Below, piece by piece: positions 39,580-44,819 of a stretch of 64,000 nt of DNA. Where the stretch lies: the NCBI GenBank assembly GCA_048938105.1, contig JBHLMN010000001.1:96001-160000 (forward strand), written 5' to 3'. Position numbers and translations under genes: made by a program. How positions within the stretch are numbered: position 1 is the first letter of the stretch; the number at the start of each line of letters is the position of its first letter. Under the pieces are notes generated by a model. The model made no database searches, had not been told where the DNA came from, and worked only from the letters and a program-made list of their open reading frames with translations. The DNA is from Promethearchaeota archaeon. GTDB lineage: Archaea > Asgardarchaeota > Heimdallarchaeia > Hodarchaeales > Hodarchaeaceae.

Positions 39580-40608
39580 ATGAAATGTCTTCTTGCAGAT
39601 CAAGGAGTACCTCAAGGGGACTGTTTAACTATTACTCCTAGTGGGGATAAGAAACGAGCGTGTGAAGTAACTCTAAGAAAAACTAATGGCGTATATGAAC
39701 GATTAATAAAATCAATGCACTTATCACGGCCTGAGGATTATTTTTCTGTCTACCAAAGTGGATGCAACCACGCTTGTTTGAAATGTCACTCATCAGAGTT
39801 CTCAAAAAAAGCAAATGGGGATTGGATAAGCATCGACATGTTAGCAGTAATAGCAAGTGATTATTTAAGATCAGTAACAGTCAAAGAACCACGTTCTAGA
39901 GCCACCATGTGGCATGCTGAGGATCTCTGTCTCCATTGTGGCTCATGTATCCTGTTTGGCAGTCCATCCAAGTTTTGTCCTGGTAAACTAAAACCCTCAC
40001 AAATTGTCCTCTCTCCTCAAGGGTTCGGGCCCGCTCGAAATATCCTTGCATTTACAGGGGGGGATCTGACTTGTAATCCTCAGTATTATGCATTGGCGGC
40101 CGAAAGAATCAAAGATGTAACCGATGAAAAGCTTTGGGTATTGGTGGAAACCAATGGTTACGCATTGACAAAAAAAAATCTGGAAATTTTACGTGACGGT
40201 GGGGTCGATTCCTTTTGGTTGGATATTAAAGCATATGACGAAGTCAGCTATCAGAAATTATGTGGAACACCTAATTCAACAGTCTTAGATAGCCTAGCTT
40301 TGATGATTGATCTAGATTTTACAGTAGAGGTTCTCACATTGTATATTCCTGGGATTGTGGAAACTGATCAACACCGACAGATTGCTCGCCTTATAGCTGA
40401 TGTCGATTCTACTATCCCTACGACCTTATTGGCCTTCTTTCCCTCATATAAATTAAGGGATACCCGATCTCCTACTTTTAGTGAGATGATGACTAGTTAT
40501 TGGGTTTTGAGAGAAGAAGGATTGAACAATCTAAGACTTGGTAATATTGGAGTGTTTGCTAAAACTGATGAACAGGTGGAAGTCGTAAAATCATTAAGAT
40601 TAGGATAA
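39580..40608 (+). CDS. Radical SAM protein (PflA/activating-enzyme-like)
   Basis: GCNHACLKC, FTGGD, ETNG, WLDIKA; an additional CLHCGSC...C cluster. Confidence 0.88.
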   Translation: MKCLLADQGVPQGDCLTITPSGDKKRACEVTLRKTNGVYERLIKSMHLSRPEDYFSVYQSGCNHACLKCHSSEFSKKANGDWISIDMLAVIASDYLRSVTVKEPRSRATMWHAEDLCLHCGSCILFGSPSKFCPGKLKPSQIVLSPQGFGPARNILAFTGGDLTCNPQYYALAAERIKDVTDEKLWVLVETNGYALTKKNLEILRDGGVDSFWLDIKAYDEVSYQKLCGTPNSTVLDSLALMIDLDFTVEVLTLYIPGIVETDQHRQIARLIADVDSTIPTTLLAFFPSYKLRDTRSPTFSEMMTSYWVLREEGLNNLRLGNIGVFAKTDEQVEVVKSLRLG

Positions 40609-40651
40609 TTCGACTTCAGCTTAGATTAATCTATTTCAGAGGAAAATTATC

Positions 40652-41119
40652 ATGAATATGTTCAACGTTTATCCGATTGGTTATGTAAGAAAAGAAAAGG
40701 AAAAAGAGTATTTAGAAATTTTAAAGGAATTTCGCTTAGGGCTCTACCGTCTTGAAACAATCTCTCACGCTTTTATACTCTGGTGGATTCATGAAAGCGA
40801 CACTCACGAAGCAAGAAACGTCAGAAAAACAATCCCAAGAGTGAGAAATAGCTTTTTCCCTCCACAAGAGATGGGAACTTTCGCAACACGCTCTCCAAGA
40901 CGTCCAAACCCCCTAGGATTAACATTAGTTAAAATTACAGAAGTGACTGAAGACCAAGTAGTTGTAGATCATATTGATGCATTTGATGGTACACCAGTTC
41001 TAGATATTAAACCCTATCTCCCAAATGGTGACCGGATCGATGAAGGAGTGGTCCTACCGCAATGGTTTCAGCACCTTTTAACCTCACGACCAGCTGACCG
41101 AAGGGAGAATCAAATGTGA
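40652..41119 (+). CDS. trmO: tRNA (t6A37)-N6-methyltransferase TrmO/TsaA family
   Basis: PIGYV, GTFATRSPRRPNPLG, DAFDGTPVLDIKPY. Confidence 0.9.
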   Translation: MNMFNVYPIGYVRKEKEKEYLEILKEFRLGLYRLETISHAFILWWIHESDTHEARNVRKTIPRVRNSFFPPQEMGTFATRSPRRPNPLGLTLVKITEVTEDQVVVDHIDAFDGTPVLDIKPYLPNGDRIDEGVVLPQWFQHLLTSRPADRRENQM

Positions 41120-41120
41120 A

Positions 41121-41435
41121 GTGATTAATCTGGCAACAAATGTTTTCCAAAGAGAAGCTCGGCTTTACACACAAATAGGGAGTTCTAAAATTCAATGTGA
41201 TACCTGCTGGCATCAATGTAAAATCTCGGAAGGAAAATTTGGTCGTTGTCACACTCATACTAACATCGAAGGAGTTTTATATTGTGTAAATTACGGGTTA
41301 GTCTCTTCTTTTTCTATTAATCCAATTGAAAAGAAACCCTTATTCCATTATTATCCTAATTGGTTTGCTTCAACAATAGGCAGCTATTCGCTACTATCTG
41401 GAATCGTTACCTCGACGATTGGTGGTTTTTCATAA
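41121..41435 (+). pseudogene. Truncated 5' fragment of an AmmeMemoRadiSam radical SAM gene
   Basis: QCDTCWHQC...GRC...YG...NPIEKKPLFHYYP...TIGSYS is colinear with 42950-43216. Homology stops at 41390, just before the CxxxCxxC motif. Confidence 0.88.
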
Positions 41436-41607
41436 GGGGGATGGTATTATCTCCTAATGATATCGAAGTTGATGTTATCTTAGGATAAGATTTAATATGA
41501 ACTGTTTTTTCTTAGGTAAATATGATCTTTAAATTAGCGCCTACCAAAGTAATATAAATATTAGAGCCTTTTCTAACTTATAACAGAAAAAAATTGAGAA
41601 GAAGAAT

Positions 41608-42948
41608 ATGGGAGCTGAGAAAAAAATCGGGAGACCAACAAAAATACCTCCTAAAAGTCAATTCATTGAAGCTTGTAAATTATGTGAGACAATAGAAGAA
41701 GTTGCTCGGAAATTAGACATTTCTAAACGATCTGCTTATAGATATGCTAGATTCTATGGATTAAATCTCAATCATTTTGAAATTCCCTTTAGGTACCCAC
41801 CCCTTCCTGACTCAAGAAGAGTCCGATATATGATTTGCAAAATGTTTCTAAGGAATCACTCAGCAATTGAAACGTACAAACAGTTAAATAAATCGCTATA
41901 TTGGAAGAGAGAAAGGATTACAAGGATTTTAAGAGATGAAGGATTTGTCATCTATCGAAAGAATGCATGTAAGATAGTTAAACATCTTAATGGAGCTCAT
42001 AATAAATCAATCTCTAATGAGCTACAAAAAATAATCGATGGAGAAGTACTAGGTGACGGTCAATTGTTTTCTCAGTCTAAAGACTTCAAACAGAAGAGTA
42101 TTAACAAACCTCTTTCAGAATATTTACTTACTTTTAATAGACTTACGAACCTAAACAAAAAAGAAATTACTAATGATAGAGAACTCAAGAAAATAATTTC
42201 CGAATATAACAGCCTTATTCGGAGTCTCCTGAAAGCTCAAGTGGCTGGATTTCATATTCACAAATCACTACTTGAGGAGCCATGGATTAGATGGCTAGCA
42301 AACCTATTTAACAAGCATAATTATTCAGTAACCATAGTTCCTCCCAAAAAAACAGTATATATGATTACACAGAGTACAGTACAACTTCATCAAGAGTATA
42401 AGAAATGGTATTCGAAGAAAAGAAAGGAAATTCCAACCACTTTACGATTAACACCAACTACCTTTTTACACTGGTATGTTGGAGATGGATCCGCTTCAAA
42501 AAATACGTTAACATTAAATACACAAAGTTTCAATGAAAAAAACCATAAATTTCTGCAGGAACTTCTAAAGAAAACCATAAGAGTCAAAACAAGAATTCAA
42601 CCATATTTTAGCTGGAGATATCCACGAAAAACACTCTTTAAGCTTTGTATTACTTCAAAAACTAATATAAACAAAATTTTTGAGTACCTTGAGAATGCTC
42701 CAAAAGATTCTTTATCATTAGCAAAACAACTACTTCCTTGGAAGTTTGATTGCAAATTAAGGAAAAAGGATGTATATAATCCTAAAAAAAGGTTTGTAGC
42801 CGATAATTACTTGAATTTTTTTGTAAAAACGGTAAAAAAGGTTGAAAAAAACCCATTGGAACGAAGTAGACGTCTTAATGTTCTGTTTCCTTGGAAATTT
42901 CCAATAAAGAATGAGATGCATATAGCAATAAATTGTAATAAGAATTAA
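41608..42948 (+). mobile_element. Free-standing LAGLIDADG homing endonuclease with N-terminal HTH
   Basis: Two LAGLIDADG-type motifs (IIDGEVLGDGQL; FLHWYVGDGS) plus LNTQSF; N-terminal TIEEVARKLDISKRSAYRY; very Lys-rich. Confidence 0.85.
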
Positions 42949-42949
42949 A

Positions 42950-43984
42950 ATGAATTTAACACGTAAACAATTCAGAAGTAAGGCTTTATTATATCGTTGT
43001 CTGCATAATTCATCTGTTCAATGTAATACATGTTGGCATAAGTGTATTATTAAGGAAGGGGGTCATGGTAGATGTAAAACTCGCATTAATATCAGAGGCA
43101 CATTATTTACGGAAACGTATGGGATGATTTCTACATTATCACTCAACCCAATCGAAAAAAAACCATTATTTCATTATTACCCTGGTTCGTATGCTTTAAC
43201 AATCGGGAGCATAGGATGCAATTTTTCATGTCCATGGTGTCAGAACTGGAGTATTAGTAAGTGTTACCCATCTGAAGTTCATTATCCTCGATTTATGAGC
43301 CCTACTGATCTAGTCAATAGGACAGAAAAGAATGATAAAATAAGCGGGATATCAATTTCGTTCAATGAACCCACATTATCATTGGAGTACTCATTAGATG
43401 TATTTCATCAATGCAAACCTAAAACGTATCGAATGTTCGTGACTAATGGTTATATGACGAGTCAAGCGCTAAAATTGCTCATTAAAGCAGGAATGAGTGG
43501 AATGACTGTGACAGTCAAGGGGAGTAAAAAAACAGTTAAACAATATTGCAAAACAAATGTGGAAAAAGTATGGGAAAATATCCGAACAGCCTTCGAAAAA
43601 GGAGTGCATATTGAAGTGGTCTGTCTGATAATTCCTACGGTTAATGACTCAATCGAATTTTATCATGAAGTTGCAATACGGTTAAGGGATATTAATTCCA
43701 ACATTCCACTTCATTTTACCAGATTCCACCCTGATTATCAGTTCACAAATGTGGACTCGACTCCAATCAAAACATTAGAAGTAGCTCATGGAACGGCGCA
43801 ATCTGAAGGACTATCGTATGTCTACTTAGGAAATGTACCTGGTCATCCTTTAGAAAATACTTATTGTCCAAATTGTCAAACATTACTCATCAAACGAACC
43901 ATTTACCAGATAGATATGAAATATGATGTCAAGACTCAACGTTGTCCCTCCTGTGGAACATCCATTCCTATATTTCTTGGTTAA
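42950..43984 (+). CDS. AmmeMemoRadiSam system radical SAM enzyme (complete copy)
   Basis: NPIEKKPLFHYYPG, GCNFSCPWCQNWSIS, FNEP, VTNGY, PLHFTRFHPDY, YVYLGNV, NTYCPNC. Confidence 0.92.
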   Translation: MNLTRKQFRSKALLYRCLHNSSVQCNTCWHKCIIKEGGHGRCKTRINIRGTLFTETYGMISTLSLNPIEKKPLFHYYPGSYALTIGSIGCNFSCPWCQNWSISKCYPSEVHYPRFMSPTDLVNRTEKNDKISGISISFNEPTLSLEYSLDVFHQCKPKTYRMFVTNGYMTSQALKLLIKAGMSGMTVTVKGSKKTVKQYCKTNVEKVWENIRTAFEKGVHIEVVCLIIPTVNDSIEFYHEVAIRLRDINSNIPLHFTRFHPDYQFTNVDSTPIKTLEVAHGTAQSEGLSYVYLGNVPGHPLENTYCPNCQTLLIKRTIYQIDMKYDVKTQRCPSCGTSIPIFLG

Positions 43985-44648
43985 CTTTGACCAAGGCTAA
44001 ATTTTGCAGATATTGTTTGATTTCTTCTGGTACTAGTAAAAGGGCGGCAGCAATAGCTCCTATCTGTGCATTGACAACATGATCTGCAGTACCAACAATG
44101 ACAACTACTTTTTCCCAAGGAATTTTTTTCGTTATTGTGGATAATTTTCTCCTAGCTTTTCTATCTAACAAAGCTACCTGAGGTAATGGAGGATAAACTG
44201 CATCTAGGAGATAAAAATTTCCTGATTTTTCTTTAAGGAATATAGTACATCCTAACGCTCCGTTCATAAGAGCTTCATCACGTAGAACTACTGTGTTAAG
44301 CTGATCAATACCTGAACCTTCAACACAGGCAATAGCATCCTTTTTCCCTAGAGTATAATTACGTCCTAAGTAGATACGATGAGTTGGAATGCGGACATAT
44401 TGTTGACATCTCCTCCACACCTCTTTCCCTTGAGTAGTGAATTGGTGCCCTAATCTTTGACTCAATCTTTCTATAAGCTCTGTTTTTACCAATTTCTCTA
44501 AAATTATCCGAGTTTGAGCATTGGAGATACCTAGCTTACGTGACAACTTGTACCTCCCTATTGGTTGGTTCTGGTCTAGAAGAAGGAGTGAAAACAAGAA
44601 GTATGTTGTAGACTGGGTTGGTCTTACTGAGGAAATAAATAACACCAC
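43968..44648 (-). CDS. Winged-HTH protein of DUF4443 type
   Basis: PIGRYKLSRKLGIS...GHQFTTQG wHTH and LRDEALMNGALG. Confidence 0.7.
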   Translation of the reverse strand: MVLFISSVRPTQSTTYFLFSLLLLDQNQPIGRYKLSRKLGISNAQTRIILEKLVKTELIERLSQRLGHQFTTQGKEVWRRCQQYVRIPTHRIYLGRNYTLGKKDAIACVEGSGIDQLNTVVLRDEALMNGALGCTIFLKEKSGNFYLLDAVYPPLPQVALLDRKARRKLSTITKKIPWEKVVVIVGTADHVVNAQIGAIAAALLLVPEEIKQYLQNLALVKVNQEI

Positions 44649-44819
44649 TACACTTTGATCTTTTACATCTTTTATACTTTGGATAGAATATTAAGATCTA
44701 CTCAAGATTTTACTGGAAATCTTTGTTTTAGCCTTAAATAATCCGCAATCAAGTGTTAGTAGTTTAATTTTTCTCAACAGAAAATTAATCAGTTGTGAAA
44801 TAGATCTTGTATATGAATA

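Follow-up and report, generated by a model that had tools for sequence, protein, structure and literature searches.

A putative splicing-free homing cassette carrying a replacement gene start in a radical SAM gene of Asgard archaea

Introduction

Mobile open reading frames (ORFs) of fungal mitochondria can enter a gene together with a foreign copy of its C-terminus. Examples include atp6 in Allomyces macrogynus, atp6, atp9, cox2 and nad3 in Glomus sp., atp9 in Rhizopus and cox2 in Mortierella (PMC3630166). These ORFs are the closest known precedent for the element described here, which appears to be a mirrored, 5'-end version of them. The element lies in a 64,000-nt stretch of contig JBHLMN010000001.1 from Promethearchaeota archaeon (Hodarchaeaceae), where a gene for a LAGLIDADG homing endonuclease separates the orphaned start of a radical SAM gene from a complete copy of the same gene. 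An earlier reading of this DNA, hereafter the original prediction, had noted that some fungal mitochondrial endonucleases duplicate part of their host gene, and the fungal cases above provide that precedent.

Intronless homing is also known from T4-like phages, in which it is carried out by the free-standing endonucleases SegF, SegG and MobE. Homing endonucleases have further been found inside conserved enzyme genes that remain functional in pieces, such as nrdA with mobE in phage Aeh1 ('genes in pieces') and the 'fractured genes' with split inteins (PMC2677866).

Here, evidence is presented that the archaeal element is a homing cassette that does without splicing. It would comprise a leader with a probable promoter, an endonuclease with a helix-turn-helix (HTH) region and a LAGLIDADG core, and replacement codons 1-89 of the target gene. 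We place the probability of this reading at roughly 0.8.

An orphaned gene start in front of a complete gene

The window is the whole 64,000-nt stretch analysed, and coordinates are given relative to its start. The parts of the element all lie on the + strand. Lxxx and Gxxx denote loci and genomes, respectively, while the prefixes H_, rem_ and R_ mark endonuclease-linked full genes, resident 5' remnants and endonuclease-free orthologs.

The remnant (41121..41390) begins with a GTG codon 1 nt after trmO and comprises codons 1-90 of a resident radical SAM gene. It matches the N-terminus of TIGR04337 (AmmeMemoRadiSam radical SAM) over profile positions 2-68 (E 3e-16). The homology ends at ..TIGSYS, immediately 5' of the position of Cys90 in the CNFSCPWC motif, and past 41390 the frame continues through unrelated codons to a stop at 41435. 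A spacer of 217 nt (41391..41607) is followed by the gene for a free-standing homing endonuclease of 446 amino acids (aa; 41608..42948), which has an N-terminal HTH region and a monomeric double-LAGLIDADG core matching PF03161. A complete radical SAM gene (42950-43984; 344 aa) then starts 1 nt after the endonuclease stop. It scores 244.2 bits against TIGR04337 (NCBIfam cut-off 220), and its CNFSCPWC (CX3CX2C) motif is intact. Two parts can be told apart within this gene: a replacement 5' segment, codons 1-89 (42950..43216), that travels with the endonuclease, and a 3' part from the CX3CX2C motif onward (43217..43984) that is of host-lineage type according to the breakpoint and the C-terminal tree described below. 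The remnant and the N-terminus of the full gene share 54% identity over 87 aa (E 3e-33).

The original prediction had set out this layout from the DNA alone, i.e. a resident-looking gene of about 90 aa broken at 41390 before the motif cysteine, a spacer of about 217 nt, an ORF with HTH and double-LAGLIDADG regions, and a complete enzyme copy with a divergent first 89 aa. Its coordinates proved exact, and the spacer length, the endonuclease family and the divergence of the two gene starts all hold.

Alignment of five spacers divides the spacer into lineage-specific filler (~41391-41436) and a leader that is conserved among cassettes (~41437-41570). In all cassettes, TTTAAA and ATAAATA tracts lie ~45-80 nt 5' of the endonuclease start, and the TATA-like tracts of the window leader are at 41527-41535 and 41550-41563. 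The left end of the window leader (41437-41490) holds a short frame, ..SPxxIExxVxLG-stop, that is shared with L051 and degenerate in other loci. It may have descended from the 3' end of a gene that belonged to the context of the original donor. By eye, its resemblance to the C-termini of the upstream radical SAM gene and of the target gene is too weak to call.

Insertion into a highly conserved motif is typical of introns and inteins, and the 1.8-kb block could accordingly be a spliced intron or intein, if the layout is not simply misassembled. However, an Rfam scan of 40600-44700 gave no match at E values up to 1, group I and II introns included. The endonuclease is a separate ORF with its own start and stop and no in-frame fusion, every frame of the spacer contains stops, and the complete, intact gene that follows makes splicing unnecessary. 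No contig from the sequencing runs joins 41390 to 43217; these are DNA contigs and are silent on expression. As for misassembly, which the original prediction had named as a risk, independent assemblies of other samples show the layout again (L051/L058, L052, L053 and L061), and short contigs of a second sediment sample, taken in the same study, span these junctions at ~99% identity. Intron, intein and misassembly are therefore rejected by the Rfam null result, the ORF structure and the recurrence, and the probability left to them is very small.

A breakpoint at the cluster motif and conflicting trees

Maximum chi-square analysis placed breakpoints at codons 88-93 in all triplets tested. Six triplets were permuted, giving chi-square values of 33-97 with 0/5000 permutations as extreme (p <=2e-4). 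For the full gene of the window, the breakpoint falls at codons 89-92 (chi-square 39.7, permutation p <=2e-4). Nucleotide identity in sliding windows changes sign at about codon 90. For example, H_L061 and H_L052 are 81-96% identical before codon 90 and 63-74% after it, while the identity of H_L061 to the endonuclease-free R_L009 climbs from 56-67% (codons 1-60) to 76-89% beyond codon 90. The window gene behaves in the same way, with 84-91% identity to H_L058 before codon 90 and 71-82% after. Against R_L008, identity is 50-63% across most of the 5' part and reaches 72-84% across most of the 3' part, where a few windows fall to 62-69%.

The two parts of the gene also have conflicting trees, which were built from codons 5-89 (N tree) and codons 90-340 (C tree). 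A first N tree with the very distant outgroups P0024 and P0027 was unresolved and was rebuilt without both. In the rebuilt tree, the seven endonuclease-linked genes cluster as a single clade (support 98/98), whereas the remnants fall among resident-type sequences, with rem_L061 as sister to R_L009 (90/89). Approximately unbiased (AU) tests on the N tree reject a grouping of the window's full gene with its own remnant (H_WIN with rem_WIN, p 2.6e-4) and a grouping of H_L061, H_L054 and H_L053 with R_L009 (p 0.004). In the C tree, these same three genes do group with R_L009 (100/97), and a single clade of linked genes is rejected (AU test, p 6e-38). The flanking gene agrees with the C tree: the upstream radical SAM genes of L053, where the site is occupied, and L009, an empty locus of genome G018, are 88% identical and form the closest pair, which makes these the closest pair of hosts. 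Codons 1-89 thus follow the endonuclease and codons 90 onward the host, which makes the gene a chimera.

The presence of two copies of the 5' part on the same strand, 1.8 kb apart, might instead suggest that fast divergence followed a partial tandem duplication in situ or the gain of a whole paralog, with the endonuclease as an unrelated neighbour. A simple paralog, as the original prediction had pointed out, should lack a breakpoint near codon 90, and one was found at codons 88-93 (89-92 in the window gene). The AU test separating H_WIN from rem_WIN also speaks against this explanation, as does the fact that the 5' segment clusters with other linked genes but the 3' part does not. Furthermore, the sole other AmmeMemoRadiSam-type paralog in the genome is only 40% identical and lies on another contig (G000:C9:140594-141574). 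Duplication and paralog acquisition are rejected by the N and C trees and must be considered highly improbable.

Occupied and empty sites among relatives

Orthologs of the full gene were sought in 20 same-genus genomes. Full-length orthologs occur in seven of them (57-72% identity) and are uninterrupted in every case; G017 holds only the C-terminal part, at a contig end. The nearest empty loci, L008-L010 (genomes G005, G018 and G016, respectively), have the synteny of the window minus the 1.8-kb block, and a genome search found no endonuclease in these three genomes, whose completeness is 84-96%. At the protein level, the remnant is 70, 64 and 74% identical to the orthologs of G005, G018 and G016 and 51-59% identical to four farther orthologs. 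The 3' part of the full gene follows with 75, 72 and 69% against 58-61%. For the 5' part of the full gene, the values are 62, 56 and 60% and remain flat at 53-59% for the farther orthologs. The remnant and the 3' part thus follow a common phylogenetic gradient, from which the 5' part of the full gene deviates. Uninterrupted relatives with these properties, i.e. a 5' part closer to the remnant and a 3' part that fits the full gene, had been expected in the original prediction, and the three nearest genomes answer to this description.

The layout of remnant, endonuclease and full gene recurs in at least five metagenomic lineages besides that of the window. It is visible in the window, L051/L058, L052, L053 and L061, while the site is empty in G005, G016, G018 and L064. 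Two further loci, L054 and L059/L060, lie at contig ends where only the endonuclease and the full gene are visible, and in L059/L060 the contig edge leaves no more than the last 66 residues of the endonuclease. Endonuclease homologs at 79, 65, 58, 56 and 42% identity are all located directly upstream of this radical SAM family. Those down to 56% show the order of remnant, endonuclease and full gene for which a homolog search had been proposed. Some of the cassette contigs derive from metagenome-assembled genomes of Hodarchaeales/Hodarchaeota, in keeping with the Asgard assignment.

The linkage also emerges when the carried segment itself serves as the query. Residues 1-89 of the full gene retrieved a sharply separate group (P0010-P0015) at 80-100% identity, with the next match at 63%, and every member with upstream sequence has the endonuclease in front. 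The 5' segment of the window is 79-89% identical (aa) to those of other endonuclease-linked genes versus 53-62% to endonuclease-free orthologs of the same genus, and codons 1-89 of the linked genes are 79-100% identical among themselves. As a negative control, a metagenome scan with the remnant peptide recovered only distant AmmeMemoRadiSam genes (<=58% identity), and 0/80 of these loci carry the endonuclease or a tandem N-terminal duplicate. An empty allele from the window's own lineage was not among them.

Timing of the insertions and horizontal spread

Substitution rates at nonsynonymous (dN) and synonymous (dS) sites bear on when the cassette arrived. Between the window and L058, dS is 0.35 for the 5' segment, 0.50 for the endonuclease and 1.48 for the 3' part. 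In every pair with both values estimable, dS of the 5' segment is ~1.5- to 10-fold below that of the C part and tracks that of the endonuclease. The cassette is thus younger than the splits between its hosts and has therefore moved between lineages, which indicates that the endonuclease and the replacement segment spread horizontally together.

The remnants, in turn, carry a signature of purifying selection. Among remnants dN/dS is 0.08-0.14, and in comparisons of remnants with each other and with intact resident genes it is 0.06-0.19, with dS saturated in both sets. For rem_L061 versus R_L009, dN is 0.093 and dS 0.675, while the C part of the same pair gives 0.097 and 0.735. These equal values imply that the remnants diverged while functional and were orphaned recently and separately. 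The window remnant carries G79N at an otherwise invariant position and the L052 remnant I34T and P72I, so that the 28 invariant columns hold three changes across the remnants versus two in 23 intact genes. The L053 remnant has acquired a stop and a deletion, and remnants are therefore dispensable. Taken together, the remnants show the first signs of decay.

The endonuclease

The endonuclease matches PF03161 (LAGLIDADG_2) with 50.3 bits (cut-off 25, E 3.5e-13) and has weak HTH matches at residues 28-48. GDG motifs are located at 149-151 and 292-294, and D150 and D293 are invariant in nine family members. A profile built from the family alignment matches I-SceI at E 6e-6, and I-SceI is the best solved relative by sequence as well as by fold. 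An AlphaFold2 model (predicted local distance difference test score, pLDDT, 81) has an I-SceI-like two-domain fold behind an N-terminal helical HTH region. Its top Foldseek matches are I-SceI (5a0m/1r7m; template modelling score by target 0.64-0.68), I-WcaI, I-OnuI and I-DmoI. The dN/dS ratio of the endonuclease among loci (0.21-0.37) reflects purifying selection. With its invariant catalytic aspartates and modelled fold, the endonuclease looks functional.

Purifying selection and an HTH region would also be expected of a protein that has been domesticated as a regulator of the downstream radical SAM gene, in which case the cassette would be a fossil of past mobility. Such proteins exist, as WhiA is a LAGLIDADG-derived regulator. 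The tight coupling upstream of the radical SAM gene in all loci fits this explanation, as do the single copy of the endonuclease in the 5.85-Mb genome and the lack of an empty allele in contigs from the window's population. Nevertheless, both catalytic aspartates are invariant across the family, presence and absence vary among close relatives, and a cassette dS far below host dS implies transfer between lineages after their split. Extra HTH modules are, moreover, common in free-standing homing endonucleases. Domestication as a present-day regulator is hence judged unlikely, and a homing cassette remains the preferred interpretation.

Paralogs of the endonuclease at ~31% identity are found in the same genus (L036/L062 and L037). 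One of these, in L062:4203-9214 (G015:C2), is a 550-aa multi-HTH LAGLIDADG_2 protein encoded on the opposite strand between two aldehyde dehydrogenase genes, and similar LAGLIDADG_2 paralogs of 542-567 aa occur in G002, G007 and G020. The L062 paralog was considered as a second replacement cassette and discarded, given that the flanking aldehyde dehydrogenases are only 29% identical to each other.

Insertion point and variant outcomes

In protein alignments, the remnants of the window, L051, L052 and L061 stop at T(I/V)GSY(S/F), before Cys90 of CNFSCPWC. In nucleotide alignments, the homology extends through codon 89 in the window, through the TG of codon 90 in L051 and to about codon 91 in L061. 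The four remnants thus end within codons 89-91 (..GSYS|C) and continue into fillers of differing sequence and length. The insertion site is defined to within ~6 nt. Codon 88 is TAY (Tyr) and codon 90 TGT in every invaded allele and in two of the three nearest empty ones, whereas the empty allele of G016 has TTT (Phe) at codon 88. The cassette-borne segments, on the other hand, all carry ATA/GTA (Ile/Val) at codon 88 and TGC at codon 90.

Codons 90-100 (CNFSCPWCQNW) comprise ~33 nt of almost invariant DNA. This would give the right end of the cassette immediate homology in a new host and explains why the switch to host sequence occurs exactly there. For the same reason, the position of the switch alone is no proof of a cut site, and the common end of the remnants is the stronger argument for one.

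Two loci show different outcomes at this site. In L052, the N-terminal remnant ends at codon 89. Behind it lie, in this order, the endonuclease, a chimeric donor gene that is complete, an orphan gene of 738 aa and a C-terminal remnant of the resident gene. The latter begins near aa 160 (to ~342), lies next to DUF4443 and is 77% identical to the C part of the donor gene. The resident gene has thus been split into two remnants by a larger insert, and the arrangement looks like a break at the same site that was repaired by capture of a longer fragment. The orphan lacks a Pfam match and is separated from the C-terminal remnant by a 66-aa ORF (L052:8414-11710; JGI 3300041085 Ga0452209_001480).

The endonuclease of L055 is the most distant one (42-49% identity) and precedes an AmmeMemoRadiSam gene that is itself more distant. 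Relative to the empty locus L063 (4912-5016), L055 has a 2.9-kb insert just upstream of this gene (L055:3141-6035), consisting of a PF03417 AAT-family gene and the endonuclease, and it has no remnant. Nucleotide identity between the two loci is 77% over the first 88 codons, 89.5% over the rest of the gene and 88-91% in the flanks. The 5' part has been replaced by conversion.

These variants bear on the extent of the mobile unit. The original prediction had proposed spacer, endonuclease and new 5' segment as this unit, and trees, breakpoint and recurrence all support it. A unit strictly bounded at codon 89 does not hold throughout, since L052 captured a whole donor gene plus extra DNA and L055 had its 5' part replaced without leaving a remnant.

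The same variants could be taken to mean that homing proceeds as in T4-like phages, with the endonuclease residing upstream of its own native radical SAM gene and the intervening stretch being co-converted. The remnant would then be an accident of illegitimate repair and the replacement 5' end not an evolved feature. The upstream insert of L055 relative to L063, which left no remnant and only the first 88 codons with extra divergence, fits this explanation well, and so do the whole donor gene captured in L052 and the variation of the left fillers between lineages. However, the remnant has been kept in five lineages with a shared end codon, and the switch to host sequence occurs at that same codon, so that the inserted block behaves as a unit bounded by the cut site. 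The T4-style explanation differs from the cassette mainly in its emphasis on the origin over the current unit and less in mechanism. Co-conversion of this kind likely describes the origin of the system and fits L055, and it leaves the recurrent, remnant-bounded block unexplained. As a full account it is rather unlikely, and the replacement cassette is retained as the current unit.

Several observations do weigh against the cassette interpretation. Fillers at the left junction differ by lineage, so that this side may be resolved either by end joining or through homology with the donor's remnant. Spread could accordingly have relied on that remnant for homology, or on joining events that were one-sided or illegitimate and happened repeatedly. 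Even without a local cut, the almost invariant 33-nt stretch is where exchanges between diverged alleles would be prone to resolve. No donor lineage was found for the carried 5' segment, whose closest non-linked N-terminus is 69-73% identical, and the comparison loci are mostly short metagenome contigs. Finally, as regards present-day mobility, the endonuclease is single copy, and contigs from the sequencing runs contain no endonuclease-free allele of the window's own population, although this is no proof of absence.

Proposed mechanism

We infer the cleavage site, the repair pathway, immunity, the leader promoter and present-day mobility along the following lines. The endonuclease would cut endonuclease-free radical SAM alleles at codons 89-91, immediately ahead of the codon for the first Cys of CX3CX2C. 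The break would then be repaired with a cassette-bearing allele as template, and the block copied into it would start with the conserved leader, include the endonuclease and end at codon 89 or 90 of the carried 5' segment. The resident 5' part would stay upstream as a dead remnant, and the resident 3' part would join the imported 5' part in frame and without a seam, giving a complete gene without an intron or intein. As the insertion would split the recognition site and the imported left half differs at codons 88 and 90, the occupied allele should be immune. The restored gene, 1 nt behind the endonuclease stop, is probably co-transcribed with the endonuclease.

The displaced part is the 5' end, and a cassette must therefore supply the starts of both transcription and translation for the host gene. 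An actively spreading element may thus bring promoter, endonuclease and 5' module together and render a host enzyme gene transcriptionally dependent on a selfish operon. This extended proposal is tentative and falls somewhat short of even odds. If true, it would represent an addiction-like arrangement that is undescribed for homing endonucleases, and the element would be a natural means by which species exchange modules at the radical SAM motif.

Genomic context

An activase-like radical SAM gene (39580..40608, +; Pfam Radical_SAM) lies outside the element. It is conserved 5' of the locus in relatives and served as a host marker. The trmO gene between it and the remnant (40652..41119, +) encodes a tRNA t6A37 methyltransferase (TIGR00104, 101.6 bits, cut-off 93) and is syntenic in G005, G016 and L051. 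Only in some lineages, namely the window, G005, G016 and L051, does trmO stand between both radical SAM genes; in G018, G008, G007 and L053 the target gene directly adjoins the upstream radical SAM gene, and in L052 a B12-binding radical SAM gene occupies the upstream slot. On the other side, a DUF4443/HTH gene on the opposite strand (43968..44648, -; Pfam DUF4443) marks the downstream host flank and is syntenic in L008, L010, L052, L058 and L059.

The second sediment sample (run X2, window 40600-44100) has 9 differences in 816 nt across trmO and the remnant, and represents a cassette-bearing strain variant.

The AMMECR1 and Memo partner genes are not adjacent to the target gene. AMMECR1 is found at G000:C11:92877-93419 and Memo at G000:C52:87025-87894, ~50 kb away. 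With partner genes and paralog dispersed in this way, either radical SAM copy may serve the canonical AMMECR1/Memo trio.

Significance and comparison with known systems

A literature search returned the fungal precedent but no archaeal or bacterial chromosomal case; its coverage was incomplete, and absence is unproven. Besides introns and inteins, a spare copy of the displaced gene part is a third route by which a homing endonuclease can reside inside an essential motif, and this route extends beyond fungal mitochondria to the 5' side of a gene and to an archaeal chromosome. The locus offers several natural pairs of alleles before and after insertion, together with a new HTH-LAGLIDADG subfamily whose target can be guessed. 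With the allele pairs, the defined site and the guessable target, the model of cleavage and immunity is directly testable. For annotation, the locus clearly exemplifies how sub-genic horizontal transfer yields chimeric enzymes in Asgard archaea, and short N-terminal 'fragments' beside LAGLIDADG genes should not be mistaken for split genes or assembly errors.

Compared with I-SceI and other LAGLIDADG_2 monomers, the window endonuclease shares the PF03161 match, two LAGLIDADG motifs that each have an acidic residue, and the fold. It differs in its low sequence identity to I-SceI (~12% over the aligned fold), in ~130 additional N-terminal residues with HTH modules and in not being intron-encoded.

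With T4-like phages, the archaeal system shares a free-standing endonuclease gene beside its target gene, and the co-conversion of flanking donor sequence and immunity through site polymorphism are further likenesses. However, the phage enzymes belong to the GIY-YIG or HNH families and act in phage genomes, while the archaeal enzyme is a LAGLIDADG protein. In addition, phage homing relies on two-sided homologous recombination and leaves no recipient remnant, whereas the archaeal cassette leaves one. The genes in pieces and fractured genes, in which an endonuclease also sits inside a conserved enzyme gene, likewise keep their function without RNA splicing. In those cases rescue comes from assembly or trans-splicing of protein halves, whereas the archaeal locus encodes one complete polypeptide because the 5' half is duplicated.

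The likeness is closest to the fungal mitochondrial ORFs. In both, an endonuclease ORF (LAGLIDADG or GIY-YIG in fungi) is inserted with a foreign copy of the displaced segment, and a hybrid gene is formed without splicing. The native segment persists as a duplicate, which in fungi is unexpressed or decaying. In phylogenies the native segment clusters with relatives, whereas the inserted one is foreign. The two systems differ in orientation. In fungi, the carried 3' end lies upstream of the ORF, often in frame; in the archaeon, the carried 5' end lies downstream of the endonuclease, giving the order of native remnant, leader, endonuclease, imported segment and gene core. Unlike the in-frame fungal fusion, the archaeal endonuclease and the carried segment are separate ORFs 1 nt apart. 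Finally, the archaeal cassette resides in a chromosome as opposed to an organelle, and its target is the cluster motif of a radical SAM enzyme.

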